A DNA stretch of 62,507 nt, taken from positions 930,001-992,507 of the forward strand of contig CP142737.1 of assembly GCA_036630325.1 (NCBI GenBank). The letters run 5' to 3'. The position numbers and the translations under genes were made by a program. Positions 11,914 to 45,007 of this stretch are shown here, one piece after another. The stretch's first letter is position 1. Every line of letters begins with the position of its first letter. Origin of the DNA: Vairimorpha necatrix (lineage: Eukaryota). The notes under the pieces were generated by a model, which was not told where the DNA came from, did not search any database, and saw only the letters and a list, made by a program, of their open reading frames with translations.

Positions 11914-11919
11914 TAGGGG
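11914..11919 (-). promoter_or_regulatory. CCC-type start-proximal motif
   Basis: CCCCTA immediately before the ATG at 11913. Confidence 0.7.
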
Positions 11920-14251: not shown

Positions 14252-14318
14252 GTGTGCTTGCAAAAGGGTGCACCTTGATTTGGGATATCGAAGGTCAAAG
14301 GTTTGATTCCCAGTGGGA
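14252..14318 (+). pseudogene. Decayed tRNA-like sequence (Pro-like) or SINE head
   Basis: B-box-like ggtttgattccc, anticodon-arm-like cttgatttgggatatcga; the duplicate has an A-box TGGCAGAATGG. Confidence 0.45.
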
Positions 14319-15069
14319 ATTAAATTAAAATTTATATTCGCTGTGTAGAAATAGATGCTGTTGGGCATACAGACGTCACTAAATATAATATTTCAAAATT
14401 TATAGACTAAACGAATATTATGAAAAGTATCTCTTGTAATGAATTGATCATTAATTTCTTAAATATATTCACAATTCGAATTCTGTTTACGTATAATTTG
14501 TTCTTCTGTGTTTCAAAATACCATAGCTGTATATATTATAGGGATCTAAAAGCCAATTATGGCACTCTTGATGTAGAAATTTATGAAGTTTGTTTTTATA
14601 CAAACAAGATATAGTATTAGATGGAGATCTGTTCAATTATTCATTAATGACAAAGAAGTTTAATAAGTTTGCTTTTAGTGTTCTGTGTGAGAGAAAGACA
14701 CATCTAAGATCTAGATGATTTATTTATATAATATCGACACTAGATTAAAACGATAAATCTACACTGAGTTTTTAAAATCTTCATTTTAATATATTTATTG
14801 ATTTAATGAGCGATTAGAGGCTTGTATATAAAAAAATTCTTACCAAATCAAATCCCAATGGTTACGTCGGAGATAGTGCAGCGCAAGTATTCGGTAATAG
14901 TTAAGAGTTAGAAATTCCCTATATCAATTGGATAATTAACTCTCTTTCTTTTGAGTTCATGTATAATATTTCATCTTCCCTTCTACTCGCCAAGAATATG
15001 AAATTTTAAAGTAAATATAGGCTAAAAGTCAAAATTTTGTTTTTTGAACTTCCAAATTTTTAATATTCC

Positions 15070-15470
15070 AAGGATGACAAGTATATATATTCAAACATCA
15101 AGAATAAGAATAAAATCATGAAAAAATAAATTATCTAAAATTACATAATTTTGATTTTCTTTTTTCATTGATGACAAGTATATATACACATTTTTAAAAA
15201 ATAAGAAGCTGATAAAAATCATGAAAAAATTTTTGTCTAAAATGTCATAATTTTAGAGTTTTGAAATTTTCATTTTATAAATGAGGAAAATTATATATAC
15301 ATATATATATTTACAATAAGACAGAAAAAAAAATCATGAAAAAATAATTAGTCTAAAATGAAATAATTTCTAATTTAAGAGATTTAAATTTTAGATTTTT
15401 CAAACTTGACAATATATATACAAATGTAATAAGATGAAGAAGAAAATCATGATAAATAACTGAGGAAAAT
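15070..15470 (+). repeat. Degenerate tandem repeat, ~105-115 bp, about 4 units
   Basis: aaaatcatgaaaaaat...tctaaaat recurs near 15113, 15217, 15330 and 15444. Confidence 0.65.
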
Positions 15471-18400
15471 AATTACCCCAAAATAATTCATCACAAAAGA
15501 ATTTAGCTATATCACGAAGGCTTTAAAGTAATTATTCTTGACATTGCAAACGACCAATTAATTATTAAGAAGAGATGTATTTGTATATGTATATATATAT
15601 TTAAGAAGAGATAATAATATCAACAAGACGAAAATAGTCCATCAATAAAATTCAGATAAAACAGTATTGTAAGTACAAAATTTTAAAAGTAGACTTAATA
15701 TTTTTTACGATTGGGAAATTATAATTATATCTATCGCTTGCAAACAAAATAAAGTTAGTATATAAAATAGAGAAACATAAAAAATTAGTTTAATCAACAA
15801 ACACTGTTAAATACATTGTTACATAAATATATATCTATATAATCGAACTTAGATGAACTAAGAAATTTGTATTTCGAACAGATTTCCATTAATACTCCAG
15901 AATTGAATAATCTATATGTGACGAGTCATTTGCATACTGAGACGTGCCCTGCCCAAAGGAATAGCCATTATTGACTGGCACATCGATAGACTGAAGAAAT
16001 GATTGACAATAGATGGCAAAATGAGAGGGTATATATATATGTAATAAATACATATAAAGATTTATATAACAAATGTTTTTTGTGTTTTAAATATCTCCAA
16101 TTAGTCATTAGCATTTTACTATAATAAGACACTTTTAGTGAAAGACCAGGAAAGATTGAACATTAAGGATCACAAAGCACAGAAAAATTGAATTTATTAA
16201 ACAAAACAAAAAAGTTCCCTTTTTAGGACGTAAATCAACCTCAAAGTCTATATATAAAATAAATTAAAAATTATATGATACTAGAAATTCAAAATCTCAA
16301 CAAAATTTATAAGCTTTTACGAAGATATGTGTAGATATAATAAACATGGCAAGTGCTTAATATAAATATACATTTATACTAAGATATAAAAATCTTGGTA
16401 ATAAGTTCATATTTATTGCAACAACCAGATGTATCTTTGTTTTCTAGAATGAAATACCCAGAATCAATTACATCATATATTTTATTACAGACTTAACATA
16501 ATAAACAAAAACGTATTTTAATGATATAAAATAAGATAATTTTGAGTTTCTGAGTTATGATAATATCGATTAATTAATATAGAAATAATATTTCATATGT
16601 AAAAAGAATAAACAAATCCTATTAAAGAACCCAATTGATAAAATTAAGTATTGTAAACAATCAAACTATTGTTTTTTTGCCAAGACAATAGCCAACCCCC
16701 CAAAAATTAAATAAAAGACAAATAAAAAAAAAATTTACGTATCTTATATATTCTAAAAATATAATGTCAGTGTAAATGTACTATTATTAATATTCTGTAG
16801 GACTGATTATAGAGATATTGACCATCAATAAATAATAGAAGAGAAATAATCAGTTATTTAAGATAGTAAATGAACAAAAGTTGAAAAATAAAGGAAATAT
16901 AAAGTGGGAAACACGAGATTATAATTATTTATGATTTTGATTATAAATAAAATCATTTTTTACAACATATATACAATAGAGTAATATAATTCTGCAATTT
17001 AATATTTGATATGTTTAGATTTCATTAAGTTAACATTTTATTGTAAAATTATATAATCTTAACAATTGCAAAAAATCATTTTGGGATACTATATTTTTTG
17101 AATATTTCAGAGATAAAAGTGTTTTACATAAGATAAGGTGAATGATCATTTAAATATAACATTAATAAAAAAAAAGTAAATTGGTATATTTTGCATTACA
17201 CCCCCTAATAGATATACTTTCTGTTTGCAAATAAATAGACCATCTAAATCATACATAATTTAAACAGATAAGAGGACGTTGTATACAATAGAAAAGAAAA
17301 CAAATAAAAAGATTACAGTCTAAAAATAGTTATAAAACTGTACACTAAATCAAAATTATTGTTCACATTAGATGCTATACAATGGATTTAATAATTGCAG
17401 ACATAAATTTTGACTACAACTTCCTGGGATTGATTTGGTTGTAAATTAAATTTTTATAAAAAATGCACATATTTTATTTATGTTCTATAAAAAAAGGAAA
17501 ACGACATTATATTCACATTATCAGTTACTTTTAAAATAATTTGACAAATAATAAAGTATGCAGGAAACAAATTAACTTGTTTCGTTCTTATTTCTAATTT
17601 CTAAAAGCAAATTCCGTACACTAATTTTTTTGGCAGAAAAACAAATCCCTAGATGAAAGATTATCGAAATGTCGTTTCTTACAAAAAAAATTGGATAATA
17701 TGTTGAAGCCATTTATAATAAAAACTGCGAAAATATATATATGCGAGAAATTAATATTTACAAAATAAAAGAATCAATTTCTTTGAAGAAACAGTTCAAT
17801 ATTTATTTTAGATGAATCAGTAGTTTACATTCCTCGTGTAAAGGACAAGGAACACATATATCATTATTAAAATAGCAATACTGTCATTGTTATTTGTTTT
17901 TTCCGTAAATCCGAACCTAATCCTCTATCGTATAACAAAACATAAGGTTACACATTTGATAATCTTTAAAAATTTTTAGATTGTAATTTAGTACTGTTTC
18001 TTTAATAAAGATGTATTGTTTTAATAAATATCAGTTGTAGATAAAATCTTGACAAGAAATAAATATGAAAATTACCTTATAAAACCTAGATGAAATACGC
18101 TTTATACGTATAATTCATGTCGAATTAATATGATCAACTTGTTATAAGCTAATATTAAGTAAAGCCGCACGATTCAATGTATCTGTGTAAAATCAAAAAT
18201 AAGATAAATTCTTAGTAAAAAATACATTATGTAAAATATAATAATTTTAAGTATTTATATTTTTCAATTATTATTTGAAAATGACAAGAAACGTATCTAC
18301 AATAAAAATATAATACAAGCGTTAAAATGATGCAAATCTAACACACTCTTAAAAATCGAAAACAACTTGCATTATAGATATAAAAATATGTATATATAAA

Positions 18401-20499
18401 TTTTTAAGTTAATAAATTTGAATATAAAACTGCAACAGCAATATATATAGATTAAATAAAAAAAATATTAGTTAAAAACAAAATAACAAACCGTTTTCTA
18501 TTACAATTTTATAATAAATAGTGTAATATAAGAAAATTTACATTTAGAGTATTAATAAACTGAAAATGAATGTTTCTTATATAAATTAGAAATGAATATT
18601 GTATGAATAATAAGTAATTTTGTATAAAGTAGCTTTTAATATTAAAATTTAAATTTATTTTTTTTGTAGAAGACACTGAATATGTAGAACATTTTGAAAA
18701 TATTTATGAGATATGTATGCATGTCTAGTCCTTTACCTATAAGATTAACGTCCCTATAAAAAAAAACATGGTAACCAAGCCTTTAAAACAATGACTTTCT
18801 AATTTCGGGTTTTTTGAAAAAAATTTTTACGTTCCCCGCACGAAGAAGTTTATTTTGGAAATCATTAAAAAGTTTTATGTAACAATGAGCTTAAAAAAAT
18901 GAAAAAATAGAACTTTACTATTAATGAACAACTTCACTAACAACTAGAAATGAAATGATGTTTAAATCGACCGTTTTTCAAAAAGAGGCCAGTTTTTTAA
19001 AAAAAAACATTACTGATGCAGTGTTTATTGATATTTCTTAATGGTGAATTAACGACTAGAAGGATTTATCTAGGAGCATCTTCTTTTCTTTTATACGATC
19101 CTATATCCCCAATTTCCAAAATTCGAATAACTGGTGGTCAAAGAAGTTTGTAGAAAGCAGTTTCGAATTATAGTAATGTTAGAAGTCGCGTAAAAGATTC
19201 ATTAATGATAAGTTCATTCGTGTAAGTTAATTATGTACATGATTTTGCAATTTGAAATTTATTTAAATCTTAGTTTCTTATTAGCAGTGAATCTTGACGA
19301 TGTAATATAAAGATAGATAAAAACATATGTTCTGAAACGAAAAATTTTACAATATGTACTTTCTGTAGTTTGTATGAGAATTTAAATCGGTATCTATCAA
19401 TTAACTACCTACAATAAACGTATGAGGTTAAATTCAATCTTAACAAAAATCTATGTAATGGTTCTCTCTTATCTTACATGGAAAAAAATAAAAATTAAGA
19501 AGAGAGTAATATTATGTAACAAGAAGAAAATGTCTAGAAATATTTTCTAATGAAGGATCATTAACATTTACGGAAAATTTGTAACAATCGAAAAGCGAAA
19601 TTATGAGATAAGAAATTTAGCATATAATAAAATTTGAAAGTTTGTGTAATAACTAAATGATGTTAATAGTAAAATTTTCTCAACCACATTAATAGCATGC
19701 TGACAAAGCTTCTATATCGGATTTTAAAAGGCTTTATTAGTTATCATACAATTTTAGATAATTGTTTAGTAATAAACAGATAGCAAATTATCATATAAAC
19801 TGTTTACAGTTATAATTAAGATGAATCAGTAGAACAAAATATGTCAAATGTAAAGTTATAAATAATTAGAACATTATATAATTACCAAATTAAAGACTGT
19901 CATTCTATTATAATGAATAATTTTAATGAGTTTAATATATAAAAATATCATAAAAACGTATATATGATATAAATTTTTAAAAATAAATAAGAATGATTAT
20001 TTTATATATATCAGTAAAAATCTAGAATTTAGTATAAAAATATATTTAGAAAAAACATGTTGGTCATTTAAGAGAAGGTGTCTAGTAATTTTGTTGAAGG
20101 TAATGAATTTTGCTTTTTTTTAGAGATAAAGATAATTAACAACGAAGTATAATACAATAAATAATAATAAAGGAATTAATCATCAGATCAAGGCTTATAG
20201 AATTCTAATATTCTTTATCGATGCTAGGTTCATATTAATCTTGTCTATTATATTTAATGAAATTAATCTTTTTGTAATATTTAAGTTTTTATATTTTGGG
20301 ATCTGAAATTATCTTCATTTAAAGAAAATATTTGAAAAAAAAATATTTTAAATATATTATGATTAAACAAAAATGATATATAAAAAAGTAAATAAGATAG
20401 TTTATAGAGTATAATAAGGAAGATATATTTACATTTGAACAAAAATAAAAATAATATTAATATTAATATTGTTGTTTTGTATAAAATAAAAAAAAGGGT

Positions 20500-20722
20500 T
20501 AACTATCAAATACTCTAAGAAAGTAGAAGCGTACATCAAGATGATTAACATAGAAGGCAAACGAAACCATTCCAACAGACTACCGAAGAGATGTACATGT
20601 TCCGATTTGAAAAGGACTAAGAACCGAGAAGCTGCCCACAAACAGGAGTTGCTAACGCGGAACCTATTCAGAAGATACTAGAAATATTAAACACTATTAG
20701 CATATCCCAAATGATTCATTTT
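20500..20722 (+). mobile_element. 3' fragment of RLE-type LINE (family B)
   Basis: aagtagaagcgtacatc...gctaacgcggaaccta...attcatt, homologous to 32290-32572. Confidence 0.75.
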
Positions 20723-23700
20723 TTATAATAGAAAAATATTAGTAATTATGTTGTAATTGTTTGTAAAGATTGTTTATATATATTATAACTTCGGAATTTA
20801 TTATGTTATTTTATGAAAAAAACAATATTTTTCATATTTAGATATAATTTAATCAAATAAACAAGAATTAAATATATGACAAATTAATAATTTTTTTCTT
20901 TATGGAGTATCTACACATCTTATATATCCGGCATGAAGTCTGATCCGAAGTTGAAGTGGTGAGTCTAAACTAACATATTGATTTATATTATTTGTTTGTT
21001 TTGCTGCTCATCGGAATTGTGAATCAGGGGTAAATTCCGTTTAAATAGTCAAATAGATTAACTGTCAAACCCCATGAGATGTAAACAAACAAACAAGAAA
21101 CCGAAATTCTACTAAATACGTAGTACTTCATGTGACATGCACTTTTCTTCTTTTTAGTTTGTGAATGTCAAACATGTCCAATGTTTGTTTACAATGCTCT
21201 GAGATGTTTGACAGCACCAATAATCATTATTTAATTGGAAGCCGTATCGTCAGTATAGGTCTGCAACCTCACACATCTGAATAAATATTAATATTGTTAT
21301 TTCGAATATTATTTCTTGCACAATTTAGTACATTTTTTTTTGGAGGTTGCCAACGTATGTATCTGAATAATTAATTTTTTAAGAAATTTAGATTTATTTG
21401 TCTTTTCGTATGAGTACGTAAGTATATAATTTGCTGTATATAAAATAATTATGAAACGCATTATGTGCAGAATCGCCATAAAAATAAAAAATTGAAGTAA
21501 AGTTAAACATATTAAATCGCCTTTGGACACAATACGTGAATTAAACGATATATTTATTTTTTTTGCAAGACAAAAACATATTTTTAAAAACAAGTAAATT
21601 AGATTCTTTCAAAAGGAAATTTAAACACAATCATTGCGTAATTTAATTACAAAAATGTCTGACACTATATACCAATCATTAAAGACATATAATTTAGTAT
21701 AACAATATATTTGTTGAATAAAATAGGACATATTTATATACAAGAAAAAAGATTATAAATCTATCTTAAACAATTTAGGTATATGCATTAAAGTATTTAA
21801 TAAAATGTTAAAAAACAAAACTTGATAAACTAAATACAAAGGTTTCATAGAAGTGTGTATTAACGATTACTTAATAAGGACGGTTTCAAAGTTTACTCTG
21901 TCAAATATTCACCAATAATACAACAAAAAATGAAAAATTTACAATATGTTTATCCATGCAAAATAAATAACCTTTAACTTACGCAGCTAAAAAATTATTA
22001 CAATAAAAGAAAAAATTTAAAAAATAATTTTGTATATGAAGGGCAAGGAATATCTATGAAGCAAGTCCACAATCATAAAGTTATTAATAACGAAATATTT
22101 TTAGCCTTCTAACTTAAAAGTAGCAAGGTTTTATCTGTGAATAACAGAGAAATAAATGAAAAATAAGAAAGAGCATATTGGTTAAAGAAAAAAATATCTT
22201 TTAAATTTAAAACGAATTCTACATTCAATCTAAATTATATCATAGGTAATAACAAGATAATTGAAATTTGATCTTTCGCCTTTTCTTTTGGTATAAGTAC
22301 GAAAGCAAACAAATAAAATTATTTTACGATCAAAAATAGAATGAGTAAGAAGTGATACAAATAATATTCATTTATTATAACTAGATAGTAAAGGGATTAT
22401 AAAAAGATATACATATGATTCATACATGTTGCTTTTCAAGATAAATACAAAAGAATTTAAAATAAAGATATACGATCAAGATATTATATGAAATACAATT
22501 TTCTTTTATATTAAAATCTACCCAAGATAAACCAAAATAAATCCCAATATTGCATATAGTATATTTTAAATACAATTAAAACAAGTAATGAAATTTTTAA
22601 TTATCTAGAACATATCAACGATTTTTTTAAAAAAAATTATACTAAAAAATCAACTATATATCTTTATATATGACCAATATGTACACGTTATTAAGTATAA
22701 TAATTACTAATGGTAAAAAAACGAAAACAAATATTATATAAAAGTTTTAAACGAATTTCGATTAACCTTGTATATTACATTTTTTTGATTTATAGAATTC
22801 TAAACAAGTTTTAGTTTTAAAACATTGTAAACTTTTTAAATCGAAGTTGGTAAAAAACTAATGTCACTAATATTAATTTGTTGTTTACAATCATATTGAC
22901 CACACAAAATTAGAAATTATGACCAAAAAATTCAAAAAGTAAAATCATTAATACTTTTATCATATTTATAAAAATATATTATTTTATTAATTTCAAATAA
23001 ATAAGAACAAATCAATTCAAAAATCTATCGGTTAAATATTTGATAATCGCTCTTTTGTTGTATATAATACTTTCTAAATCCGTAAAGTATAATATTTTTA
23101 TATAATAATTAGTATAAAATTTAAGTATGAAGATAGAAATATTATAAAAAGAATTCATTTACGAAAGAAAAAAAAATTCTAAATTCATTCAACAATTATC
23201 GTGAAATTATATATTCATTAAGAAAATCATTTATTTAATGTATAATTAGAAGAATTAAAGAAAATTATCAAAAATTAACAATATAAAATCAGACCTATTC
23301 ATTGTAAAATCGTTCAGTAACGGTAAAAAATATTTTACTTAAAAACAACATTTATGTTAAAATTTTAAAAATCCTAGGGAAAACCTACTTATATACATAT
23401 TCCATATTATAATATAATAAGAAATAATAAGTAAATTTTTAATTATGAATAATTAAATAAAAACAATAGCACATACAATTTAATACAAAGTTGTTGTAAA
23501 TAAAACGTATTCGAGATTTTGAAAAAGGCGTCGCATATTCCAAAAAAAAAACCAAAAATACGGGGAGAGGGAATAGAAATGCATACAAATCGAATACAGT
23601 TAATAACAAAAATAGAATTAATTATGAAATGCTATATTTTATAAAAAATCAGATATATATAATAGTTACACGCAAAAGGAATATATATTTCAAAATTTAT

Positions 23701-26700
23701 ATATTTAAGCAGAAAATAATTTAAATTATAATAAAGAGTAATAACATAAAATAAAATGTTTAACACTAGCTTAATTTAAATTTAAAAACTTACTTATGAC
23801 ATGTTAATACAAGATAAATATTTTTCAATAATAATACTATATAATATTTCACCTGGACGTTTTCAAGATTATTTACAAAAAAAATAAAATAAAAGTCTAA
23901 AAGTTAGAATTGGATATATTAAATATTAACAATATGGTAATACTTCGAAACAAATAAGAATCTTAGAAAAAACACCTAAATAATATTTATATATCGTTAG
24001 TCTCAAAAATTTAAAAGTATTCTTAAGAAATTAAATTTTTAGAATATATAATAATTCATTTACACATATTTAAATAAAAAATAAAATTTTTTATTATTTA
24101 GCAAAAAACCGAAATATTATTAGTTAAAAGACTAAACTTAAAAAATTCCTCTTATAAAGTAAAAAATTTTGCTCTTTGTCTTATAATTATCAGATATTTA
24201 GAATTTTTGAATCAAAAATTCAAATAAAACCGTCATAGTCAATATTTTTGAAGTAAAATTGAAATTTGATTTTGAAATTATGTTTTGTCTATAATTCAAT
24301 AAAATGCGTTAGATTAAATCTAAGTATCTTAAGGGCAAAATTTTTTTTTACTTTAATATAAATTTTATAATACACAAGGATTTATCTACAAGTAAAATAA
24401 ACATAATGTCAATAAAAATCTTTAAAAAAAAATATATTTCAAAATGCAATTGTAATAAAGATAATTGAGGTTAATATTACAAAAATATTTTCAAAAGAAA
24501 ATATATTTAGAGTAGTAGGATAACTTTTTTTTAAATAAACGTATTGGACTAAAACTCGTTTTGAAAATGCATATTTTCATCCAGAATAGATATAAAAAAC
24601 ATTCAAACTAAACGCTCAAATAATTTTAGATAAGTAGAAAGAAGGAATTTTTCATACAATTAAATTTTCACGACTAATTAAGCTAAAAGTTTCAACAACT
24701 AAACGAAAAAATATTTTCTTATCACTAAATACAATTTTTTATTTTAAAATTTCGCTTTTAATAATGTACATACGGCTGATTAAAATAAGTAATTGTTTTA
24801 GAACATATAACGATTTTTTTTTAAAAAATAATATATCAATCGAAAATTTAAAATGCAATATATTACACCTACATGTTAAACATGATTATATATACAACCT
24901 ACATGAGAAACATATGATTCAATAATGAAAAATTTATAAAAATATTAAAAACAATCTTTTAAAAATTTTTATATTGTTGTATTTCAAAAGAAACCATATC
25001 AAGGAGGGTTTTAGAAAATTATATTTTAAAGTTATTAAATTACAATCAATATTTCATAAAGTTTTATAAATGATTTAAATCATTCTTATAGTAAAATAAT
25101 CAAAACTAATTATCGCAAGGAAACATTGGAAAGTAGTTCTTATCTAAAAACTTCATTTTTTTATGCCTAACTTAAGTTTTTAAAATTATTATAAAAATGT
25201 AGCATATATAAACCAAATAATATCAAGAAAATTCATAAATAAAAATTTAAGTCTCAAAGAAACAAACAGACATACAACGAAAATAAAAAATAAACATATA
25301 TAGAGGAACACAACGAAAGGCATTTCATTCTGTTATCATTTATTAAAACGGTATTTTAAAATTTTTGGTTATAATCTGTAAAAAAATTATAAAATACAAA
25401 AAATTATTTCAAGGGAAATAATGATATATCATGGAAATAATAATAAAAATGAAAATAAAACATATTAAATACAAATTAAAAGATAAGATAATTTATATTC
25501 ATACAAATTGTAAATTTATACACAAAACTAGGCTAAAATGAATTTCGTATTTCTTCATATGAATTTTTCTAGTAAATATCATATATTCCACGTATTTATT
25601 ATTTATACTAAAATTATGATAAAACTAAAATTAAAATAAATACAGAATTAGTAATTTTATTGAAAAAAAATTTACACTAACCGAAGAATTTAAAAATATA
25701 AATCAATAAGAGCTAATAAGGGTTAATAAAAAGTATAAACAAAACCCAATGCAACTAACTAATAGATATTTTTTTATAAAGAATAAATAATGTAAGAGCG
25801 TATAAATTAAAAAACAAATCTTATCTTTAATAATGACAGAAAATATTTTTATGCATAAACCCAATTACATATTAAACATAGATGCGGTTGACGATTTCTA
25901 ATAATTATTAAACTATAATTAATTTAAATATTAATTGATAAAAAAATTATAATAATAAATTGATAAATTAAATTTTAATTATTAAAACAAAAAAATCTTT
26001 ATGAATTTTTTTGGAATAAGCATTTTGGTTTTCGTAGAATGAAATCAATCTAATGATTTAATTAGAAAATAAAATTTTTTAACAATCCAAGAATTGGTTT
26101 TATCATAAAAAATAACATTTTAACATAACACATTAAGTAAAACATTTTCATAGAGAATGTTAAGTTACTTTTAAACTATTCGCAATTTTTTACGTAATAA
26201 ATTTGTATATACAACATATCTGAATTGCAAAAAATTTATCAATATTAACTGGCTATCAATAATATCAAACTGGTTGCTTCATAATTGAAATTATATGAAG
26301 ATCAAGCAAGAAGAAAATCTAACGGTTATAAAAGAAACTATAAAAGTATAAAAAACATATCTAGGGTATTATGATCATATAATCAAATATATTTTTTATA
26401 GGATGTATTTTTCAATTATCCAATAGTTTTTCTCCCTTTTATTTTTAAAATATTTTATTTTCTACCATAAAAAATTGAATCCCAAAGAGAACATAAAAAA
26501 TAGACACAATATCATTTGTAATTATAAAAGACTTCCTGAACAGTTGGGCAAATACATAGATAAATAAGATTGTACATTAGAAGAAGCCGCATCCCTATGC
26601 AGCAGCCAAGTAGATTTAAATATTCATAAAAAAATTCAAAAAAAACAATTTTTTTCTATAATTTTTTATTCTATAAAAATAAATTAAATCATATTTACTT

Positions 26701-27144
26701 TCATTGATCTATTTTAATATCACATAATTTTATACTGAAATATTCAAATGTAATTAGTTATTACTATTGAATTTTCAAACAAACACTGGAATCTTGTCCT
26801 TAAGTTTCCAAATTATTAAGTCCTTTTACTTTCTTGGAATAGTGATTCAATTTTATCATTCAAAGTGGTTATTTTGAGCTTTCCTAAAAGGTATAATCTC
26901 TTGTGTCTGTATATATGCGATAGTACAGCATTCGAGATTTAAGTTATTTGTATAATATCCCTAAAATATTATTTTTTAGTATAATACGAATATATCCAGT
27001 AAGAAATATGTTAAAACACAAAAATGACCTTTTTTACAATAATATATATTTTAAATTAAAGAAGTAATTTCATACTTTAACAATATATTATAACATAAAT
27101 TTATTCGCAGAGTTACACCAAAAAACTTTGTGTTTTAATTATAA

Positions 27145-30100
27145 TGTTAATGTTGAACCTCCTATAAAATAAATGTAAAACATGGCAAACACAAAAGACG
27201 AAAGGGTACAAGTGAGACCTGTGTTTAAGAGAAGAGAAAATTACTAAAAGAAGCTCAGAGAGTAGAAGCAATCATCAGAATGCAGAAAGATGTAAAAAGA
27301 AGTGACAACGAAGCAGTCGATAAAACAAGTAAGTACTGAACTTCAAAATTTTATTGTTGATAAAAATTTAATCAGTATGATAAATTGGAATGATATTATT
27401 AATGAAATTGATAAATTAGTTGTTGAAGAGGAAGAGAATAAGAACAAGGAAAAAATAATGAGTAGAGAACTAGAAGATATGGTAGAGTGTATGAAAGAAA
27501 AATTAAAAAGAAGATTATAAGATAAATGACTATACTGTATCAGTGCCAGGAAGAAACTTTCAATATCAAAGACGAGAAATACATTGTTTTATATGTGGAA
27601 GAATTATACAATTAGTTAGAGGTTGTATGGAGCGTAAACAAAGACAGGAAGAGAATAATGAAAATAAAAGTGTTAAATATTTGGCTAATTTTCACTTTAT
27701 CCCCCCCTTACCAATATAAATACAGAATTTTTTATTTTTAGCCCTGTTTTTTAAAAGTCGAAGCGTCCAGAGCGGAAAGGAACAGAGAAAAATTTACATA
27801 AGTAAAAAAAGGTCTTAGAAATATCTAATTTGAACATAGTTTATGAAAAATATATTATTTAAACCAATTTAATAATGTTTTCTAATAAACTATGAGTTAA
27901 ATAGAAGTCTAAATTTGTAAAAATATGTTTTAGCCTATTGCTTTCTTTTGTCATTATAATTAATTTTTGCCAAAGATAACCATGTTTATACTTAGTTTAT
28001 GTTGTTTAAAACAGATTCTAGGTTTGGTTATTCTTAGTTTGGTAGTATATTTATTAGTCTTGTTTTTTAGGTTTTTATTGGTTTTCTAGACAAACAAAGT
28101 AAAAATAATGTTATATTTATGCTCTTTTAAGAATTATTGAATCGTATAGAATGTCAATTTATTAATATATGTTATATTTTAGCTCCAAAAGTAAAATATT
28201 ACATGTTTGGAAAATTCTCTAATTCTTGAAAAATATTCATTTACAACAGCAAATAAACCTTATAAATATTGTTTATACGGAGATTTCGTTGTTATACATT
28301 GCAATGTACAATAAAGATAAATCTTGATCAATAATTGGAAGAAGGAAATTTTTAAAAAATTGAAAAAAAAATGAAAAAACAATTGTTTTATTTTTGGTAA
28401 ATATGCTATTTTATTACAACTTTATTTTTTTGACTTTTGCTCCTTCACATTTTTTCCGCTTCGAATTTCGAAAAAAAGGGATATTTTTTAAAAATTCTTA
28501 ATTTATATTGGTAAGGGGAGGATAAAGTGAAAATGCTCCAAATATTTTGGCATTTATGATAATAGTAAAATGAAAATATTAAAAGGAAATGATTTTAAAT
28601 TGAGACTACCAGTGGAGATAGAAAGAGAGAACTCAAGAAACAGTTTTTATTCAAAAAATACAAACCAAGATAAAAGAAGAAAAAATATTAATAAATATGA
28701 AGAATTGGAAGGAAAATTTCCATAGGTATTAGGAAAATACAAAGGGAAAATAAAATGCTTAACAGGGGGAAATATTCTATCAAAACAAAACAATGAGTGA
28801 AAGTAGTAAAAAAAAATATTCCTTATAAACTCCGAGAAAAGTTAGAAAAGTATATTAAATATTATAAAGTATAGGTATTATCAGAAGGACAAAGAGCGAA
28901 TGGAGAAGCGCAATGAAGACATAGAAAAATTTTATAGTGAAGTACAATTGAGAAGCGATTTGATGGCTTTAAACGAACTGGTTTAAAAAGATCCGTATGA
29001 ATTGCCATTGATTAGAGACATTATTGAAGCAACGCAAGGTTCTAATTTATTTATGGTTATAGACCTAAAGGAAGGATTCTATCATATAGAAATTGAGAAA
29101 GCTCAAAAACATAAGACAGCTTTTAGATAAATGATAGAGTTTACGAATGGGATAGCATGGTAATGAGATTTAACAATGCCCCATATTATGCTCTGAGTGA
29201 TGAACGGAGTTTTAGATAAGTTTAGAGGCAAGATTGTTACGGTGTACATGGATGGTATTATAATCATTCAAGAGATAGTAATATACACAAAAAATTTTTA
29301 AAATAAGTAATTCGAAAATTTAACGAATTTGGATTAAAAGAAAGTTAAAAAAAATACAATATAAAGGAGAAGTAAAACTACTTGGAGTATCAATTAACGA
29401 TGAAGACATTTCACCTAACAACATTAAAAAGCAAGAGATATTAAAATACAGAAGGCCTGCTAACATAAAAGAGCTTAAAAAATTTTTTTTTTTTTGGGGG
29501 GGGGGAGGCAGGCTAGTTAAGAGATTTTATTTCTAATTAGCTTATCGGACAGCACGTCTTACAGAAGCACTAAAAAAAGATAGTATATGGGAATGAGCCG
29601 AAGATATGGAAAGAGCTTTTATGGATATCAAAATGGGTTGAAGATTATGAAAAAATGAGAAATAGTAGATAGTAAAAAAATGTATAGAGTAAGAACGGAT
29701 GCATGCAATACGGGAATTGGAGCTATACTATTGCAAGAAGACAAGGGAGGTGGATTCCGATCAATGGGCATCATAAATGATAACACCAACAGATAAAAGT
29801 ATACGTTTAGTGAAAAAGAGATGATGGCAGCGTTATTTGAAATAATGAAATTCGAGTCAAATTTGGGAGAAGTAAATTTCATTAAATGACAGATCATAAA
29901 GGACTGGCCGAGACTAGAAACAAATCGTTTTTTAATAATAACAGAATTAATAGATGGATAGAATATATATAAGAGTTCGATTTTACTAATGAATATGAAA
30001 AAGGAAAATTCATGACGGATGTGGATGCTCTTAGTAGACAATTTAAGAATAACGAAGTGTAAGAAAAAAGCGAAAGAGAGAAACGGAAATCAAAAACAGA

Positions 30101-31171
30101 TGAATGGAAAATAATAAAGAGCATGGTTAAAAGAGAAGGTTAAGACTATAAAAGTTTTTAACAGGAGAAATTAATAAATACAACACAAAGAACTAAGAGA
30201 GACAGAAATTCGTAGAGTTCACGAGGAATTAAATCATCGTGGAGTTAAGGGAACACATTATAAGATTATACAAAGATTATCTTGGCAGGTATGAAGGACC
30301 AGATAACCACATCGCTTAAAAATTGTGAAGTATGTAGCATTAATAGCAGAAAAATGACCGGAGGTTGCAATTTTGTAACAATATTTAAGAAATTAGAAAA
30401 AGTAGCTGTAGACGTAATTGATATTGAGGAAAAATAAAGAGACATGCTATTAGGGATTTACCACTTTACAAGAAGAGTATAGGGCGAAAAGATGGAAAAA
30501 CTGGGAAGTGATGTTATTACGAAAATTTTAGCATTATGGATATATGAAATGAATGCCCAGATGTTATATTACGGATAACGGTATAGAATTTGTCAGATAA
30601 AAGTTTGTATCTCCGTGTAAAGAAAACGGAATTATACAACGGAAAGTAGGTTTAGAAGCTCATAGGTTTAATTGAAGAATAGAACGATGTATTTGAACAA
30701 TAAGGGAATCGATGATCAAACAAAAAGAAGGAAACCCAGAGGAAAAACTAGAACAAGCTGTAAGAACCTATAATAACACTCTACACACAGCGATTAAAAA
30801 ACACCAATGGAAGCATGTAAAGAACAAGGAAAAGAAGTCTTTATTGAAAACGATAAAAAGGGTGGGTATGCAAGTAATTTTAACAAAGGCATAGAGAAAA
30901 ATTTGAAGTAGATCAGGCTGTGTGAATCGCAAGATAAAAAACTTGGGTAAATAGATGAAAAGTACAAAATGAAGATTTACAAGTGTCGGTAAAATATTCG
31001 GAAACTATAGAATAATTCTTATTTTGTAAGGACTGATATCGTAAGATATATTAAGAAACGACATTATGACCTAAAAGATTTTAAAAATCAATAATTAGAA
31101 GCTTGTAACGTGAGACTACCCGTCTGGAGAGGGTGTTGGGGTTGAACCCCCTATTAAATAAATGTATAACA
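27145..31171 (+). mobile_element. Degenerate Ty3/gypsy element with 38-bp LTRs (interrupted by a MITE)
   Basis: Broken motifs CFICGR, YELPLIRDII, IDLKEGFYHIEI, HKTAF, RTDAC, ELNHRG, CEVC, TDNG, YNNTLHTAI; repeats at 27145-27182 and 31134-31171; TSD TATAA; TGG after the 5' repeat; purine tract ggagaggg before the 3' repeat. Confidence 0.9.
27683..28539. mobile_element. Merlin-like MITE (family M1), copy 2
   Basis: GGCTAATTTTCAC...GTGAAAATGCTCC, 8-bp TSD AAATATTT (27675-27682, 28540-28547); empty site in the duplicate near 58070. Confidence 0.92.
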
Positions 31172-31319
31172 TATAATCATTAATCTGAAAAAAAAGACTT
31201 GAATTATAAAGATAGTTAGATAAATTTTTTATTTTTATTTATTTAAGTTACATATTGATTAAAATGATAAATTTTTAAACAAAATATTCAGGAAGGTTTG
31301 AGGGCTAAAAGCTAACGTG

Positions 31320-31345
31320 TTAGGAACGTTAGGTAGGTAGGTAGG
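31320..31345 (+). repeat. Interstitial telomeric remnant
   Basis: ttagg-aacg-ttaggtaggtaggtagg at the position equivalent to the telomere junction at 60841. Confidence 0.9.
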
Positions 31346-32289
31346 TGTATCTGTTATATTAAAAAATGTAAAGTTTGATGAAGAGAAAAACTATACTCTA
31401 ATTTATTTTTGAATTCTAGCCACAAAATTAGAATATGTTGTACCGAAAGCATTATATACTTTTTCTATATTCTATAAATAGACTTTAAATCGACTCTTCA
31501 ACATTAATCAAAAATTTATCCAGAGAAGCCTAATAAAGAATAGAAAGAAACAAATAATAAGTTAAATCATACAGTAAAATATACTATGACAAGTTTTTCG
31601 CAAATCAATTTTTAATTTTATAATTACGCACTTTTATTCGAACATAAAATGTTATTTGAAAACATTTAAAATAAAAAAATAAATTAGTAATTTTTTTATC
31701 CAACACATGACAAGAACAATATTTGTTTTGTTCTTCGTCACATAGAGTCATATACTAAGATCTAAAAGACTTATCAATTTCATAAAAAATTTGTAATATA
31801 TCAAAATAAATTTTAAAAAGAAAACTTATCGCAAATTGTTTTCAAATTTAGCATTAGAACTTCATAATATAGGCATAATTTCTCAAAGTCAAAAAATGAT
31901 GTTTATACAAAAAGGTTTACAATTAATAATTATTAGAAAATTATCTAGAATTAAAAGCAATTTTTTAGATTAAAGTTTTCTTCTTTATAAGATGAGTTTA
32001 GTTTTTTATTTAAAAGTTATTTAAATATAAAAATTAATATTTCTTTATAAAAAAATTTCAGTCATACGAAAATATTAAAATATACAAATTTTAATAATTT
32101 AATAATAGTATATCAATAAATATATTAAATAATTAAATCATTAAGAACAAAAAAAACCTTTTTATATGTACAATTTGATATCATTTGTCTCAATTCAATA
32201 TTTTATAAAGGATCAAGCATATTATCATAGATAAATTAAAATGAAAAATATAAAAAAAGATTTAATATATGGTTTTATAACAGAGAAAT

Positions 32290-35500: not shown

Positions 35501-35995
35501 AGTTTTTAGATGATCGATGTATGAAGAAGTTGTGCCAAAGAATTAACCATAATTTTTAATAGTGTAAATATAGAAATTCAACCTTTTAAATTGTACTTAT
35601 AAAACAATAATATACTATATACACTATGAAGCTAAATTATTAAAAAATCTTTAACATAACGTATTTTAACAACAAACAGAAACATACTGTATCGAAATAT
35701 TGGTTAATATATAAAAATCATTGGGGTACTAAGAAAAACAGAACTTATACTCTTTGAAAAAAACAATTGTAAATATGTATATGTATATATAAGAAGGATA
35801 ATGAACTTGAAAGAAGAAGAAAATTAACTTTACTTATGAACAAAAAAAATTAACATGTATAGAATATGTATGTAAAGTAAGAAGTATTGGTTTTTGATGA
35901 TATTTTTATAAGAAAAATAATTTCAAATTTTTTTATAGATAAGTAACTATAGCTTAATAAACATATAAGAATGAAATAACAACGTCGTAAAATTT

Positions 35996-36826
35996 AGAAC
36001 GCCTAAGACTACATATAAATATATATTATTGGTATATAAGTGAACGTTGTGTGTCTTTTTTTGTTTTTGAGCCATATAAAAGATTTGTTATTTTTCCATC
36101 TCTTTCTTGTATATATATATATATATATATAAGAAGACAAATCTTGCAAAATATGAAAAAATTAAGAACAGCTGAAAATGCATATAAATTCATATATTTG
36201 TTATATAAGTACTTTTTTGTATCTTTTTTTGTTTTAAAGCATTTATGAAATTTGCCATTTTCCATCTCCTTCTTGTATATATATATAAGAAGACAAATCT
36301 TGCAAAATATGAAAAAATTAAGAACATCTAAGACTACATATAAATATATATTATTGGTATATAAGTGAACGTTGTGTGTCTTTTTTTGTTTTTGAGCCAT
36401 TTAAAAGATTTGTTATTTTTCCATCTCTTTCTTGTATATATGTATATAAGAAGACAAATCTCGAAAAATATGAAAAAATTAAGAACATCTAAGACTAAAT
36501 ATAAATCTATATTATTGTTATATAAGTGACACTTGAGCATCTTTATTTGTTTTTAAAGCATTTATGAAATTTGTCATTTTTCCATCTTATTTTTGTATAT
36601 ATATATATATAAGAAGACAAATCTTGAAAAATATGAATAATTAAGAACAGCTGAAAATGCATATAAATACACATCATTGTTATATAAGTAACACCTGGGT
36701 ATCTTTTTTTTGTTTAAAAACATTTATGAAAGTTGCCATTTTTCCATCTCCTTCTTGTATACATATATAAGAAAACAAATCTTGAAAAATATGAAAAAAT
36801 TAAGAACAGCTGAAAATACATATAAT
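35996..36826 (+). repeat. Tandem repeat, ~160-bp unit, 5 units plus a partial
   Basis: Units start near 35996, 36164, 36320, 36481, 36643, 36802; core tataagaagacaaatcttgcaaaatatgaaaaaattaagaaca. Confidence 0.9.
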
Positions 36827-38198
36827 TGTACGGTCTTATGAGATAACAAGGAATCTGTGTATATATATATGCGTACTTATTAGCTTATATGATTTATTTT
36901 TTCTTTAAGTAAATCAAAGTATGTCTTTGTTGTGAAGATTTTAAAACAGAATGATTCTAAAAATTTCTAGTGTAAACGTGGTTGTTTTACGATTTAACAT
37001 TCTAACATAAGAATAAAATTGAAAATGAATACTAATTGGTAAAAAATCTTATTATAATGATTAAATATTTTAAAAACTCCCAGAAACAATCTCTATTTTA
37101 ATTACAATTACATCTAAATATATATACAAGTCTTTAAGTATCAGCAATATTTCTAATTTTTTTGGCTAATGGAAAGTATTTATGTATATTTGTACATGAG
37201 AGAGATAATGAACACGAAAAAAGAGAAATTGACATCTCATAAAAACTAGTAAAAATAACATTGTATATATGTAAGTAGATTGTAAAGTTTTTATTCTAAT
37301 TAAAACCTTTATTATATACATGATTTAAATTTTTTTAAAGGGTATCTATCTGCATATATATATATATATAAAAGTACAAAATAAAAACTTTAAATTCAAG
37401 AAAAATATGCATAAATATTAGTGCAGTGAATTTAATTGTATTGAAATAATAGAACATTCATTTGGTAACAAATAATATATAAGTATTTTTATGTAATTAA
37501 AATATATAATTATATAATTTTTGCCGGTATCAACACATAGAATAAATAGATTTTGAATTAAACAAATCAGAATATAATTTGTGTATAAATCAAGAAAAAA
37601 GATTTTTTGAATTTTAAGATGAATTTTTATTATTGGAATATATCGAGGTGCATTAGAAAGAATAGAATCGTGGATAAAAAACAACCAATACCCCATTGGA
37701 AAACAATAGTGTATAAAAATACAACACTTTAAAAAAATATAAAACGAAATTTAAATATAATGAAGATTTTATATTTTATTTATTTAATACGAGGGAGCGA
37801 TTATATAAATGTATCGTAAATAAACACAATTTCTATTAAGAATAATAGAAAAATCTCATATGTACGTATATATGAATTTAACATTGAAATTTTCTAAAAA
37901 TTATAATTTTCATACTTAATGTAGATAGTATCGTAGCCAATTAAATACTGATCAATCATATTCTCACAAATTGGCAGATTTAATTGGCTACAAAAAGTAT
38001 TAAGAAAAATTCCAAAAGGGGGAATGGAAAATAAGAATAAAGAAATTGACATATTTCAAATAAATAAGATCTTATAGAATCATGTAATTATATTATATAT
38101 TTATATATTATTTTTTGCATAATTCAATGAGAATTTCTAAAAAAAATAAGCTTGAATAAGAATTGTCATATTTACAAAAATTATGTTATGTCTAAATA

Positions 38199-40706: not shown

Positions 40707-41010
40707 TCTGGAAGCATACATTCAGTCTAATGTGATAAAGAAAACTCCAGAGTCCATCTCTTTGGAACGACGAACAAGATACGATAAAGATTATGCAGAA
40801 GAAGAAGAAGTAACTAGAGCTGTAAGCGCACTAGCGAATATGGCGACTGTTGAACAAGCGATGTCGGTATAGGAGAATGAAGCTAAAAATTTGGAGTTGA
40901 AAAACATAAATTATTCCACAGAAACCAAAGTCTATGAAGAGCCGAATCTAGTGAGCGATACCGAGGGAAACTGAACAATCTAACTTTAATGATAAATTTA
41001 CTCAATAAAT
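40707..41010 (+). mobile_element. 3' fragment of RLE-type LINE (family C)
   Basis: Reads LEAYIQSNVIKKTPESISLERR; duplicate of 13206-13495. Confidence 0.7.
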
Positions 41011-41769
41011 CTTTTATATGTTGTCAACACTAAACACAAACATTGGCGTACTTACGAATGTAGTAACGACCATGGAACTTTCGTTTGATTGTGTGACCCA
41101 ACTTGACATGCCTTTCAAAACGGTTGACATATTTTTGACATCTGTCCATGTGTTGTAGTAATGTACATCACAGTATCTAAGAAAAACAAAATCTCAATAA
41201 AGAATATTAGTTAAATCACATAAATATGTTTTTATAATTTTGTATTCGAAATTATTAAAAGAATGTAGTTCATATATAGTTGTAGCAGATCAAATATATA
41301 TTAATCATATTCTTACAAATGACAGTTTTAACTTGTTGAAAAAATTATTTAAAAAAATTTACTTTAGAGGGTATGGAAAATAAGAATAACAAAATTGCCA
41401 GATATAATGGAGAAATTGAAATACGATGCCAGTAAATCTTAAATTGTGCGGTCACATATGAAAGTATTTTGTATATAATATAGGACATATACTTGTTTTT
41501 GCAGTGTAAAATGTTTACTATTTTTTAGTATAACATGTATATATATATAGAAATGTATATTTGGATCAAAGAAAATCTTATATAATTTATTTTCCAAAAG
41601 AAAGCATAAAACTAACATTGTAAATTGTTCTATTATTTGATTCATTCAGATTAATGATCTTTTAATCTGACTAATTTGAAATTTTTCTTTATGCATAGAA
41701 AGAAAAACAAAAATAAATAAAGTTGAACTATAATTGGTTTTCTTAAAGGATAACAAAAAATTAAAATAA

Positions 41770-41838
41770 TCGTGCTTGGCAGAATGGTTGCACCTTGATT
41801 TAGGATTTCGAAGGTCCAAGGTGAGATTCCCGGTAAGA
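41770..41838 (+). pseudogene. Decayed tRNA-like sequence or SINE head (duplicate)
   Basis: A-box TGGCAGAATGG, degenerate B-box ggtgagattccc. Confidence 0.45.
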
Positions 41839-42579
41839 GAAAATTTAAATTTATTTTAGTATAAAGATATCTACTGGCGGACATATAGACGTCACTAAAT
41901 ATAATATTTCAAAATTGATAGACTAAACAAATATTTTGAAAAGTATCTCTTGTATGAATTGATCATTAATTTCTTAAATACATTCACACTTTAAATTCTT
42001 ATTACATATAATTTGTCCTTCTGTGTTTCATAATACCATAGCTGTATATTCTATAGGGACCTAAAAGCCAATTATGGCACTCTTGATGTAGAAATTTATG
42101 AAGTTTGTTTTTATACAAACAAGATATAGTATAAGATGGAGATATGTTCAATTATTTCATTAAAGACAAAGAAGTTTAATAAGTTTGCTTTTAGTGTCTT
42201 TGTAGTTGAAGAGCCATCTGAGATCTAGATGATTTATATATATAATATCGACACTAGATTAAAACGATAAATCTATACAGAGGTTTTAAAATCTTCATTT
42301 TAATATATTTTTTGATTTAATGATGCGATTAGAGGCTTGTATATAAAAATAAACTCATCAAATCTAAATGGTTACGTCGGAGATAGTGCAGCGAAAGTAT
42401 TTGGTAGAAGTTAAGTGAATAATAATACCCTATATCAATTGGATTTTTAACTCAATTGCTTTTGAGTTTATGTTTAATATCATCTTCTCTTCTCCTCGCC
42501 AAAAATTTGAAATTTTAAAGTAAATAAAGGCTATAAGTCAAAATTATGTTTTTTGAACTTTTAAATTTTTAATTATTCA

Positions 42580-42990
42580 AGGATGACAAGTTAAATTATT
42601 TAAACAGCAAGAATAAGAATAAAATCATGAAAAAATAAATTATCTAAAATGACATAATTTTGATTTGTTTTTTTCATTATTGAAAAGAATTTATACACAT
42701 TTATAAAAAATAAGAAGTTGATAAAAATCATGAAAAAATATTTGTCTTACTTGCAATAATTTCTAATATAAAGTTTTTAAATTTTCATTTTTAAAATAAG
42801 GAAAATTTTATATACATATATATATATATATATACAATAAGACAGAAAAAAAATTATGGAAAAATAATTAGTCTAAAATGCAATAATTTCTAATTTAAGT
42901 GATTTAAATTTTAGATTTTCCAAACTTGACAATATATATACAAATGTAATAAGATGATGAAGAAAATCATGATAATTATTTGAGGAAAAT
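42580..42990 (+). repeat. Degenerate ~110-bp tandem repeat (duplicate of 15070-15470)
   Basis: Same aaaatcatgaaaaaata units. Confidence 0.6.
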
Positions 42991-45007
42991 AATCACCCCA
43001 AAATATTTCATTACAAAAGAACTTAGCTATATCATGAAGGCTTGAAAGTAATTATTCTTGACATTCTAAACAACTAACTAATTATTAAGAGTAGATTTAT
43101 TTGTATATGTAAATATATTTAAGAAGAGATAATAATATTGACAAGACAAAAATAATCTGATATTAAAATTCAGAATAAACAGTATTGTAAGTACCAAACT
43201 TCAAAAATAGATTTAATATTTTTTGCGACTGAAAAATTAAAATTATATCTATCGCTTGCAAACAAAGTAAAGTTAGTATGTATAATATAGAAACAAAAAT
43301 AATAAAGTTTAATCGTTTATTCAACAAACACTGTTAAATACATTGTTTTGGAGCTATTTATCTTAACAACCGTACTAGATGATTTAAGAAATTTATATTT
43401 TGAACAGATTTCCCATAAATACTACTAAATTGAATAATCTATGTGTTACGAGTCATTTGCATACTAAGACGTGCTCTCCCTAAAGGAATAGCTATTATTG
43501 CCAAGTATATTGAAAGACAAAAACAAGGATTGACTTTAAATGGCAAAATGAGCATTAAATATATGTAATAAAGACATATAAAGATTTTTTCAACAAATGT
43601 TTCTTGTGTTTTAAATATCTTCAATTAGTCATTAGCATTTTACTTAAACAAGACACTTTTAGGAAAAGACTAGGAAAGATTAAACATTAAGGATCGAAAA
43701 GCGCTGAAAAAACACATTAAAGAAAACAACAATATTCCTTCTTTAGGGCGTAAATCAACCTCAAAGTCTATATATAAAATGAAATAAAAATTATATGATA
43801 CTAAAAATTCAAAATCTCAGCAAAATTTATAAGCTTTTACGAAGATATGTGTAGATATAATAAACATGGCAAGTGCTTAATAAAAATATACATAATATAC
43901 TAAGATATAAAAATCTTGGTAATAAGTTCATATTTATTGCAACAACCAGATGTATATATGTATAAAAGAATGAAATACCCCAGAAATAATTGCATCAAAT
44001 ATTTTAATCGTACAGACTTTACATAATCAACAATAACGTTTTTAATGATATATAATAAGAAATAATGTTTGTTTCTGAGTTATTATAATATCGATTAATT
44101 TATAAAGAAAAAATATTCATATGTAAAAAGAATAAACAATTTATTATAATGAACCTAATCGATGAAAATTAAGTATTGTAAACAATTAAATGATTGTTCT
44201 CTTTGGCAATATAATAGTTAAAATCTAAAAACAAAATTAGAGAAAATTAAAAAATAAAATTCACGTTTCATTTATCCTCTAAGAATAGAAAGTCAGTGTG
44301 AATATACTATTAACTTTATTCTATAGGACTGATATAGTAATTTTGACTTACAAAACCAAAAATAGAAGACAAATAATCAGTTATTTAAGATAGTAAAATG
44401 AACAAAAGTTGAAAAATAAAGGAAATATAAAGTCAGAAACACGATATTATAATTATTTGTGCATTTGAATATAAATAAAATCATTTTTTACAACATATAT
44501 ACAATAGAGTGATATAATTCCGCAATTTAATATTTGATATGTTTAGATTTCATTACGTTAACATTTTTTTTTAAATTATATAATCTTAACAATGAAAAAT
44601 TTATATTTTATGATACTATATTTTTTGAATATTCCAGAGGTTAAAATATTTTTCAAATATGGGGTGAATGATCATTTAAATATAACATTTCTAAAAAATA
44701 ATTAAATTGATATATTTTTGAATTACACCCCCTAATAGATATACTTTTTGTTTTCATATAATTAGACTATTTAAATCATACACAATTCAAATAGAGAAGA
44801 GAAAGATATATTGTTTAGAAAAGAAAACAAAAAAAAAGATTGTAGATCTTAAAATAGTTATAAAACTGTACACTAAATCAAAATTATTCTTCACATTAGA
44901 TATTATACCATGGATTTAATAATTGCAGACATAAATTTTGACTGAATTTTTCTGGGATTGATTTGGTTGCAAATTAAATTTTTATAAAAAATGCACATAT
45001 TTTATTT

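Follow-up and report, generated by a model that had tools for sequence, protein, structure and literature searches.

We analyzed a 62,507-nt stretch of Vairimorpha necatrix DNA (GenBank assembly GCA_036630325.1, contig CP142737.1, positions 930,001 to 992,507 of the forward strand), here called the window, and in it a retroelement at positions 27145 to 31171. This sequence is probably what is left of an ultra-compact Ty3/gypsy (Metaviridae-type) element that inserted long ago and is now dead, and whose long terminal repeat (LTR) worked at a native length of 38 bp and is not the remnant of a longer one. A preliminary description of the sequence had proposed just such a near-minimal native LTR, and the proposal is supported by the results below. 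Judged by protein similarity, the lineage is one whose nearest named relatives lie in Nosema and Vairimorpha. Within Ty3/gypsy, the evidence supports a natively 38-bp LTR that overlaps both ends of the open reading frame (ORF).

Letter-by-letter comparison placed the two direct repeats exactly at 27145 to 27182 and 31134 to 31171, with 32 of 38 positions identical and no indel. Both have TGTT..AACA (TG..CA) ends and both are flanked on the outside by TATAA, a perfect 5-bp duplication. TGG directly follows the 5' repeat and a purine run directly precedes the 3' repeat, so that in each of these particulars the earlier description of the ends stood. The parts of this insertion (copy 1) are as follows.

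27140 to 27144, no strand: left target-site duplication (TSD), TATAA, identical to 31172 to 31176
27145 to 27182, + strand: 5' LTR, 38 nt, TG..CA, with the promoter-like ACCCCC decayed to ACCTCC
27183 to 27192, + strand: sequence resembling a primer-binding site (PBS), TGGCAAACAC, directly 3' of the 5' LTR; with the last A of the LTR it gives ATG GCA AAC ACA (M-A-N-T)
27181 to 27674, + strand: decayed gag with stops and frameshifts, and the remnant of a CCHC knuckle near 27585 to 27626
27675 to 28540, no strand: nested insertion, about 865 bp long, whose ends form inverted repeats of about 90 nt; it resembles a miniature inverted-repeat transposable element (MITE) and is foreign to the retroelement
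28541 to 31125, + strand: decayed pol, recognized by Pfam RVT_1 and RT_RNaseH_2 and by alignment to the relative L001
within decayed pol, + strand: reverse transcriptase (RT) at about 28948 to 29268, RNase H at about 29662 to 29880, and integrase (HHCC motif and core) at about 30200 to 31060
31126 to 31133, + strand: polypurine tract, GGAGAGGG, directly 5' of the 3' LTR; the 22 nt before the LTR are nearly identical in L001
31134 to 31171, + strand: 3' LTR, 38 nt, ending in ..ACA, with TGA at nt 10 to 12, ACCCCC at nt 13 to 18, AATAAA at nt 24 to 29, and ATG at nt 29 to 31
31172 to 31176, no strand: right TSD, TATAA, identical to 27140 to 27144

When 400-nt zones at the two ends were compared all against all, the best-matching 38-mer (32 identities) fell exactly at 27145/31134. 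Shuffled zones gave best matches of 23 to 27 of 38, and none of 60 shuffles reached 32. A 21-nt core pattern matched four places in the window against 0.11 expected, all four of them at predicted element ends. A second copy (copy 2) lies farther along the window. The similarity between 5' and 3' ends was confined to the 38 nt, with no extension on either side. No solo LTR was found in the window, where the full 38-mer, allowing up to 3 mismatches, matched only itself. Of the usual marks of an LTR element, direct repeats with a TSD of 4 to 6 bp are thus present as the 38-nt TGTT..AACA repeats with TATAA, and the polypurine tract immediately 5' of the 3' LTR (GGAGAGGG) is present in L001 as well.

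L001 is an independent, younger relative. We scanned genome contigs with the protein P0122 and recovered two contigs, L001 (the contig of P0122 itself) and L002. L001 has 911 open codons running from the start of the contig. The 22 nt before its LTR match copy 1 apart from one small indel and include the same purine tract, and directly after that tract stands a 38-nt TGTT..AACA sequence that is identical to the 3' LTR of copy 1 at 31 of 38 positions. Between L001 and the window copies, the block made up of polypurine tract and LTR is 81.5% identical over 81 nt, compared with about 66% for pol over 1,600 to 1,900 nt. Since the LTR kept its length and most of its sequence behind an unbroken gene while a third of pol changed, it behaves as a functional cis element and not as a one-off deletion. 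An open-reading relative that ends in the same 38-nt repeat, with an unrelated flank, supports the idea of a family with a native near-minimal LTR. Homology running beyond the 38 bp in independent insertions had been named as grounds for giving up that idea; no clear homology was found past the L001 repeat, the ungapped identity of copy 1 and L001 being 50% across 20 nt and 42% across 60 nt (background 32%), values that 3 to 7% of random pairs reach.

A protein search with the RT-RNase H part of copy 1, its stops read as X, gave 49 matches, the nearest named ones being pol sequences of Nosema granulosis, V. necatrix and V. apis. Nine were polyproteins of 976 to 1031 amino acids (aa) on contigs of just 3036 to 3192 bp, so that these elements must consist almost wholly of ORF. 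P0126 (1002 aa) and P0137 (1031 aa) each have a single polyprotein ORF; P0126 lies on a 4023-bp contig and P0129 on one of 3511 bp, each with 0.5 to 1 kb outside the ORF. Among 13 relatives retrieved, nine had M-A within the first 8 residues, and three of them (P0141, P0126 and P0129) had MANT, as in the window; two others had M-G-A, one had a different start, and one was cut by the end of its contig. All 13 carried RH[YCN]DLK near the C terminus, followed by a tail of 4 to 29 residues. In P0122 and P0131 this tail ends in ..ETTRLE.GML.., a string that corresponds to a translation of the purine tract and LTR start of the window.

Terminal repeats were also analyzed on contigs with long open frames from the two records that hold L001 and L002, and several were short. 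Among the more distant relatives, L005 carries LTRs of 58 bp (58/58 identical); the ATG at the junction supplies its first Met, and its stop lies at nt 16 to 18 of the 3' LTR. L015 has 75-bp LTRs (75/75 identical) that contain TTTTTAACCCATG, and its ORF begins at LTR nt 45. In L002 the 5' LTR is apparently 47 nt long, its start placed by likeness to L001 and its end by TGGCAACACC. Those of L011 measure some 172 to 176 bp, and L013 and L009 represent more distant families with ordinary-looking longer LTRs. On the sequences retrieved, short LTRs are the rule in the group. A decayed relative, L019, in which the LTR is unclear and possibly deleted, was set aside.

The records that hold L001 and L002 (G001 and G002) had 44 and 14 pol matches, including many open frames of 1,100 to 1,300 codons. 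Both are labeled as bacterial metagenome-assembled genomes, and very likely contain mis-binned eukaryotic contigs with microsporidian-type Ty3/gypsy pol. Within these two records, the LTR core pattern matched L001 itself, two AT-rich near-matches and one bacterial terminator-like site, and the 5' part of copy 2 used as a DNA query gave short low-complexity matches only. Viral contigs yielded no relative with either the intact gag-pol of the window (described below) or a 108-aa piece of copy 2 as the query; the latter also had no match in a protein search restricted to longer lengths. Metagenome contigs yielded no match to an alignment of the two RT-thumb pieces or to a 23-nt LTR core pattern.

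Coding sequence enters the LTR from both sides. The pol frame continues across the purine tract into the LTR, where it ends at nt 10 to 14 in the 3' LTR of copy 1, in copy 2 and in L001, with TGA at 31143 to 31145, TAA at 60651 to 60653 and TAG at LTR nt 12 to 14, respectively; in the window copies, the 3' end leaves the ancestral frame ambiguous. At the other side, an ATG at LTR nt 29 to 31 is in frame with a second ATG, formed by LTR nt 38 and the TG of the primer site. Read from the first of these, the protein begins M-Y-N-M-A-N-T in the window and M-T-N-M.. in L001, and the conserved gag start (M-A-N-T) is thus formed across the junction of the LTR and the primer site. The purely noncoding portion of the LTR comes to about 16 nt.

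Between the coding ends lie the CCC motif and the AATAAA that had been pointed out before, ACCCCC at nt 13 to 18 (GCCCC in L001) and AATAAA at nt 24 to 29. Two host-like ORFs in the window (402 and 688 aa, no Pfam match) are preceded by ttttacccctt-ATG and tttttccccta-ATG. In both, a T run and CCCC stand 2 nt before the ATG, at 7398 to 7415 and 11914 to 11930, as upstream sequences on the − strand; the neighboring 688-aa ORF had no usable match in a protein atlas search. In Nosema, a T-run+ACCCC motif is reported directly ahead of transcripts, in most cases no more than 20 bp from the start codon (PMC11592040). The small GGGGTT/AACCCC hairpin of the preliminary description was not supported, its three intact-looking versions folding no better than shuffles (z = +1.0, −0.79 and +0.58). 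The idea that the stop codons TGA, TAA and TAG in its "loop" were meaningful was dropped as well, because the L001 version is no clean palindrome and the ancestral frame is ambiguous.

Directly after the LTR, both window copies have TGGC(G/A)AACAC as a candidate PBS, and the 10 to 12 nt at this position are TGGCGAACAC and variants. There is no tRNA gene in the window, and no Rfam match was found there. Complements of the L005 and L015 PBS, sought in G001 and G002, were found in the elements themselves and in one coding stretch, with no tRNA among them. By eye, no complement of the PBS was seen within the LTR that would suggest self-priming of the Tf1 kind.

We propose that the 38 nt would make up an LTR that is minimal yet complete, each of its parts having two functions. 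Nucleotides 1 and 2 (TG) and 37 and 38 (CA) would serve as the integrase ends, and nt 1 to 14 would encode the last residues of Pol and its stop codon. The ACCCCC at nt 13 to 18 would be the core promoter motif of the host, so that the unique 3' region (U3) would span about 18 nt, with transcription starting just downstream. Nucleotides from about 19 to 38 would act as the repeated region (R), with little or no unique 5' region (U5), and would carry AATAAA and the first in-frame ATG. In the 5' copy this AATAAA would lie too near the cap to act; at the 3' end it would direct cleavage at the terminal CA or immediately beyond it. The start codon would consist of the last A of the LTR and the TG of the PBS, gag therefore beginning on the PBS. 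A tRNA-primed minus-strand strong-stop DNA of about 20 nt would transfer on the short R and rebuild two 38-bp LTRs, with the purine tract and the PBS defining the TG and CA ends as usual. In retroviruses, a short R of this size has reportedly sufficed for strand transfer. On the favored reading the LTR measured 38 bp at integration, and the insertion would later have become part of a conserved subtelomeric block and then been duplicated once more within the window.

A wider proposition, which we regard as about evenly balanced and leaning slightly to the doubtful side, is that a whole lineage of the Nosema/Vairimorpha type has shrunk its LTR to 38 to 75 bp. A single module would then close pol and open gag, supply a core promoter of the host type as well as the poly(A) signal, and provide the integrase ends on both sides, with R of at most about 20 nt, U5 of nearly zero, a start codon across the LTR/PBS junction and perhaps no protease.

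The 38-bp repeats might alternatively be true LTRs for integration and strand transfer without being a self-sufficient promoter, transcription coming from flanking host DNA or from insertion next to host promoters. With at most 18 nt upstream of the likely start, and with both window copies in one genomic context, this has some appeal. The ACCCC-type motif, on the other hand, is as close to an ATG here as it is in the host genes of the window and in Nosema (PMC11592040), and a T-run/ACCC directly precedes the in-LTR ATG in L015 and in an intact element of the window. Nor, in the absence of a repeated R, would a clean TG start be restored from a transcript that began outside the LTR. We consider this explanation unlikely.

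The interior is that of a coding element. The decayed gag-pol reported earlier between the repeats was recovered, with a CCHC knuckle (weak), RVT_1 and RT_RNaseH matches. The knuckle was matched by zf-CCHC in copy 2 at E = 0.0027, below Pfam's cutoff, with the pattern C..C....H....C present; the relative P0126 matched zf-CCHC at E = 5e-4. RVT_1, RT_RNaseH_2 and then the HHCC motif give the order RT, RNase H, integrase in the window copies, and the relative P0122 has RVT_1 at residues 165 to 324, RNase H at 387 to 517, Integrase_H2C2 at 592 to 647 and rve at 664 to 745. Without the nested insertion the element is about 3.15 kb long, its interior wholly taken up by about 1,020 codons. It does not belong with terminal-repeat retrotransposons in miniature (TRIM) or small LTR retrotransposons (SMART), which lack coding sequence between short LTRs, since its interior encodes gag, RT, RNase H and integrase.

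At E ≤ 0.001, Pfam found no protease in the window copies, P0122 or P0126, where a divergent one is possible; L015 and the intact element of the window each had a protease match. Between the knuckle and RT in P0122, P0126 and the window (58080 to 58400), the protease may be lost or very divergent. This pattern would suit a nonautonomous family, in which short-LTR elements without protease are moved in trans by fuller relatives such as the intact element with 109-bp LTRs. Yet many relatives of about 1,000 aa keep gag-CCHC, RT, RNase H and integrase intact, and the lack of a Pfam match is a weak argument for the absence of a protease, the stretch concerned (about 120 aa) being divergent. Such a family, which we think improbable, would in any case bear on autonomy and not on the size of the LTR.

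The nested insertion of about 865 bp in copy 1 has a second copy in the window at 7985 to 8844 (− strand), 93.75% identical. It is missing from copy 2, and contigs of the runs X1 and X2 bridge the empty site (27674>28540), with 8 nt shared at the joint. Its MITE-like inverted ends (about 90 nt) are very abundant in run X2.

The second copy of the element lies in the same orientation.

57532 to 60679, + strand: copy 2 of the same insertion, with LTRs at 57532 to 57569 (38 nt) and 60641 to 60679 (39 nt), 82 to 85% identical to copy 1

It had been described as a duplicate with the same layout. The repeats are indeed there, but copy 2 is not an independent second insertion: it is a segmental duplicate with homologous flanks on both sides. 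Because this homology runs through the flanks on both sides, the two copies represent a single insertion event. The four differences between 5' and 3' LTRs (CCTCC versus CCCCC; AATG/AAAG versus GGGG) are common to both copies, which points to one old insertion whose LTRs diverged before the block was duplicated. As judged from these flanks, the second copy adds nothing as independent support.

The duplicated unit is a subtelomeric block of about 18 kb, from about 13461 to 31350, repeated at about 40977 to 60850 with 84 to 94% identity and at offsets of 27.5 to 30.4 kb. A short interstitial TTAGG/TAGG remnant (about 31325 to 31350) terminates the proximal unit at the position that, in the distal unit, borders on the real telomere, and the window closes with about 1.7 kb of irregular TAGG/TTAGG repeats, from about 60838 to 62507. 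One Nosema species has a composite TAGG/TTAGG telomere, conserved subtelomeres of about 20 kb and a T-run+ACCCC motif (PMC11592040). The window agrees with all three features, having a composite telomere, a duplicated subtelomeric block and a T-run+ACCCC-type upstream motif. Taken with the nearest named protein relatives, these features point to a Nosema-like microsporidian host. Outside two richer islands it is AT rich, with about 18 to 30% GC. A 286-bp repeat pair at 49241 to 49526 and 50932 to 51217, 1691 bp apart and 98% identical, is found in the distal unit only and has the appearance of a tandem duplication. Positions 35951 to 36830 are occupied by a tandem array whose units recur about every 161 bp.

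Contigs aligned to the region numbered 331 in run X1 and 233 in run X2, and we took the element to belong to a multicopy family. The depth of X2 was zero to the left of 27149 and fell off to the right of 31180, while over the element it was hundreds-fold. Two X1 contigs diverge from the reference at 31133, passing into a variant start with a G-run/C-run and AATAAA.

A single insertion event visible in the window, together with relatives whose LTRs are longer (58 to 176 bp), would also fit a dead-end derivative, in which the parent of the insertion had a longer working LTR and lost most of U3 in its 3' copy, the short form then being copied to both ends of an element that never moved again. L001, however, differs by about 34% in pol and still has a repeat of equal length (31/38), an open 911-codon frame and another flank; a dead-end form would not be expected to persist across such divergence or to outdo the coding sequence in conservation, and we give this account little credence. 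Almost no weight attaches to a chance direct repeat beside a pol pseudogene in AT-rich, low-complexity sequence, in view of the shuffles (maximum 27, none of 60 at 32/38), the exact placement beside TGG and the purine tract, the perfect 5-bp TSD and the same repeat in L001.

Several points count against a native, working 38-bp LTR. The transcription start and the poly(A) site, and hence the divisions of U3, R and U5, are placed from motifs in the DNA. L001 shows the 3' LTR only, as its contig begins inside gag, and the end of that LTR was set by comparison. Just past the LTR, copy 1 and L001 are identical at 9 of 13 positions; we read the likeness as a preference for AT-rich targets, but L001 might have a slightly longer repeat. 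The contig and protein scans recovered no complete young member with two 38-bp LTRs. No matching TSDs were found at L005 or L015, whose contigs possibly join the flanks of several copies. The copy number seen in X1 may largely reflect duplication of the subtelomere and not transposition, the depth of the flanks being about that of the element. Finally, no protease was detected in the 38-bp-LTR family, and its autonomy is not certain.

The window also holds an intact element of another family.

2461 to 6159, + strand: intact 3.7-kb Ty3/gypsy element, with LTRs at 2461 to 2569 and 6051 to 6159 (109 bp, 100% identical) and TSD AACGA

Its frame of 1190 open codons runs from inside the 5' LTR to a stop codon that directly abuts the 3' LTR, and encodes gag, CCHC, protease, RT, RNase H and integrase. 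The LTRs contain AAACCCATG, with AATAAATAAACCC-ATG inside the LTR and TGGCGAGAAC three nt after it; the likely start is the ATG at 2553, after AAACCC in the 5' LTR. The element is apparently very young. Its best database relative is 51% identical and lies on a 3671-bp contig. The second-best match of its gag-pol, P0002 (42% identity over 47% of the query), is an uncharacterized protein of the wasp Polistes canadensis, which could reflect parasite contamination or transfer. Like the 38-bp family, this element has TG..CA ends, a 5-bp TSD, a TGGCGA primer site and an ORF filling the interior, and it too has AATAAATAAA, then ACCC and an in-LTR ATG. It differs in its 109-bp LTR, in a stop that precedes the LTR and in its detected protease, and the two share just about 26 to 37% protein identity over RT.

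Two adjacent short ORFs lie at 12291 to 13208 (− strand), one of which (141 aa) matches DDE_Tnp_IS1595, an ISXO2-like transposase (E = 1.6e-11). The first 284 bp of the window (1 to 284) repeat part of this region with 98% identity.

LTR finders commonly use a default minimum length of about 100 bp. With minimum lengths so far above 38 bp, elements of this kind would be annotated merely as orphan pol fragments, and the retrotransposon load and the insertion ages in microsporidian genomes would be miscounted. An LTR of 38 bp that finds room for a promoter motif and a poly(A) signal between the integrase ends, and that takes in the two ends of the ORF as well, would show how far cis requirements can be compressed. 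It would offer a natural test case for the minimal length of R in strand transfer, and an example of a mobile element adopting the unusual minimal promoter of its host (ACCCC beside the ATG). If the shrunken LTR proves to be lineage-wide, it would be the smallest self-sufficient design of LTR retrotransposon known (about 3.1 kb) and would set an empirical lower bound on the cis needs of reverse transcription and integration.

For comparison, the Nbr elements of Nosema bombycis are reportedly Ty3/gypsy elements with a single polyprotein, and the LTR of Bombyx Mag is said to be 77 bp long. A literature search on minimal LTRs found no published LTR below 76 bp, and the Nosema genome paper has no mention of transposable elements (PMC11592040). 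Microsporidian Ty3/gypsy elements with a single polyprotein were surveyed, in three groups, by Parisot et al. (2014) (PMC4202319). The element described here resembles theirs in that gag and pol are fused in one ORF with the order RT, RNase H, integrase. The available text of that survey gives no LTR lengths and describes no LTRs below 50 bp, no ORF entering both LTRs and no start codon at the LTR/PBS junction. The word "LTR" does not occur in the searchable part of its supplement; its consensus library may hold lengths.

The shortest comparable repeats come from grasses, where the SMART element FRetro129 has 85-bp repeats and the candidate autonomous element FRetro64 has LTRs of 76/90 bp; the minimum LTR length of LTR_FINDER had to be lowered to 50 bp in that study (PMC3281118). 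Like the 38-bp element, they have TGT..ACA ends and a 5-bp TSD (PMC3281118). They differ in being Ty1/copia-related plant elements, in that FRetro129 is noncoding, and in having LTRs twice as long with no coding overlap. The Mag lineage in Culex, with LTRs of 119 to 304 bp (PMC3286476), likewise combines LTRs that are short for coding elements with what is often a single ORF. Its LTRs are nevertheless 3 to 8 times longer than those of the 38-bp element, and its members measure 4.5 to 10 kb (PMC3286476).

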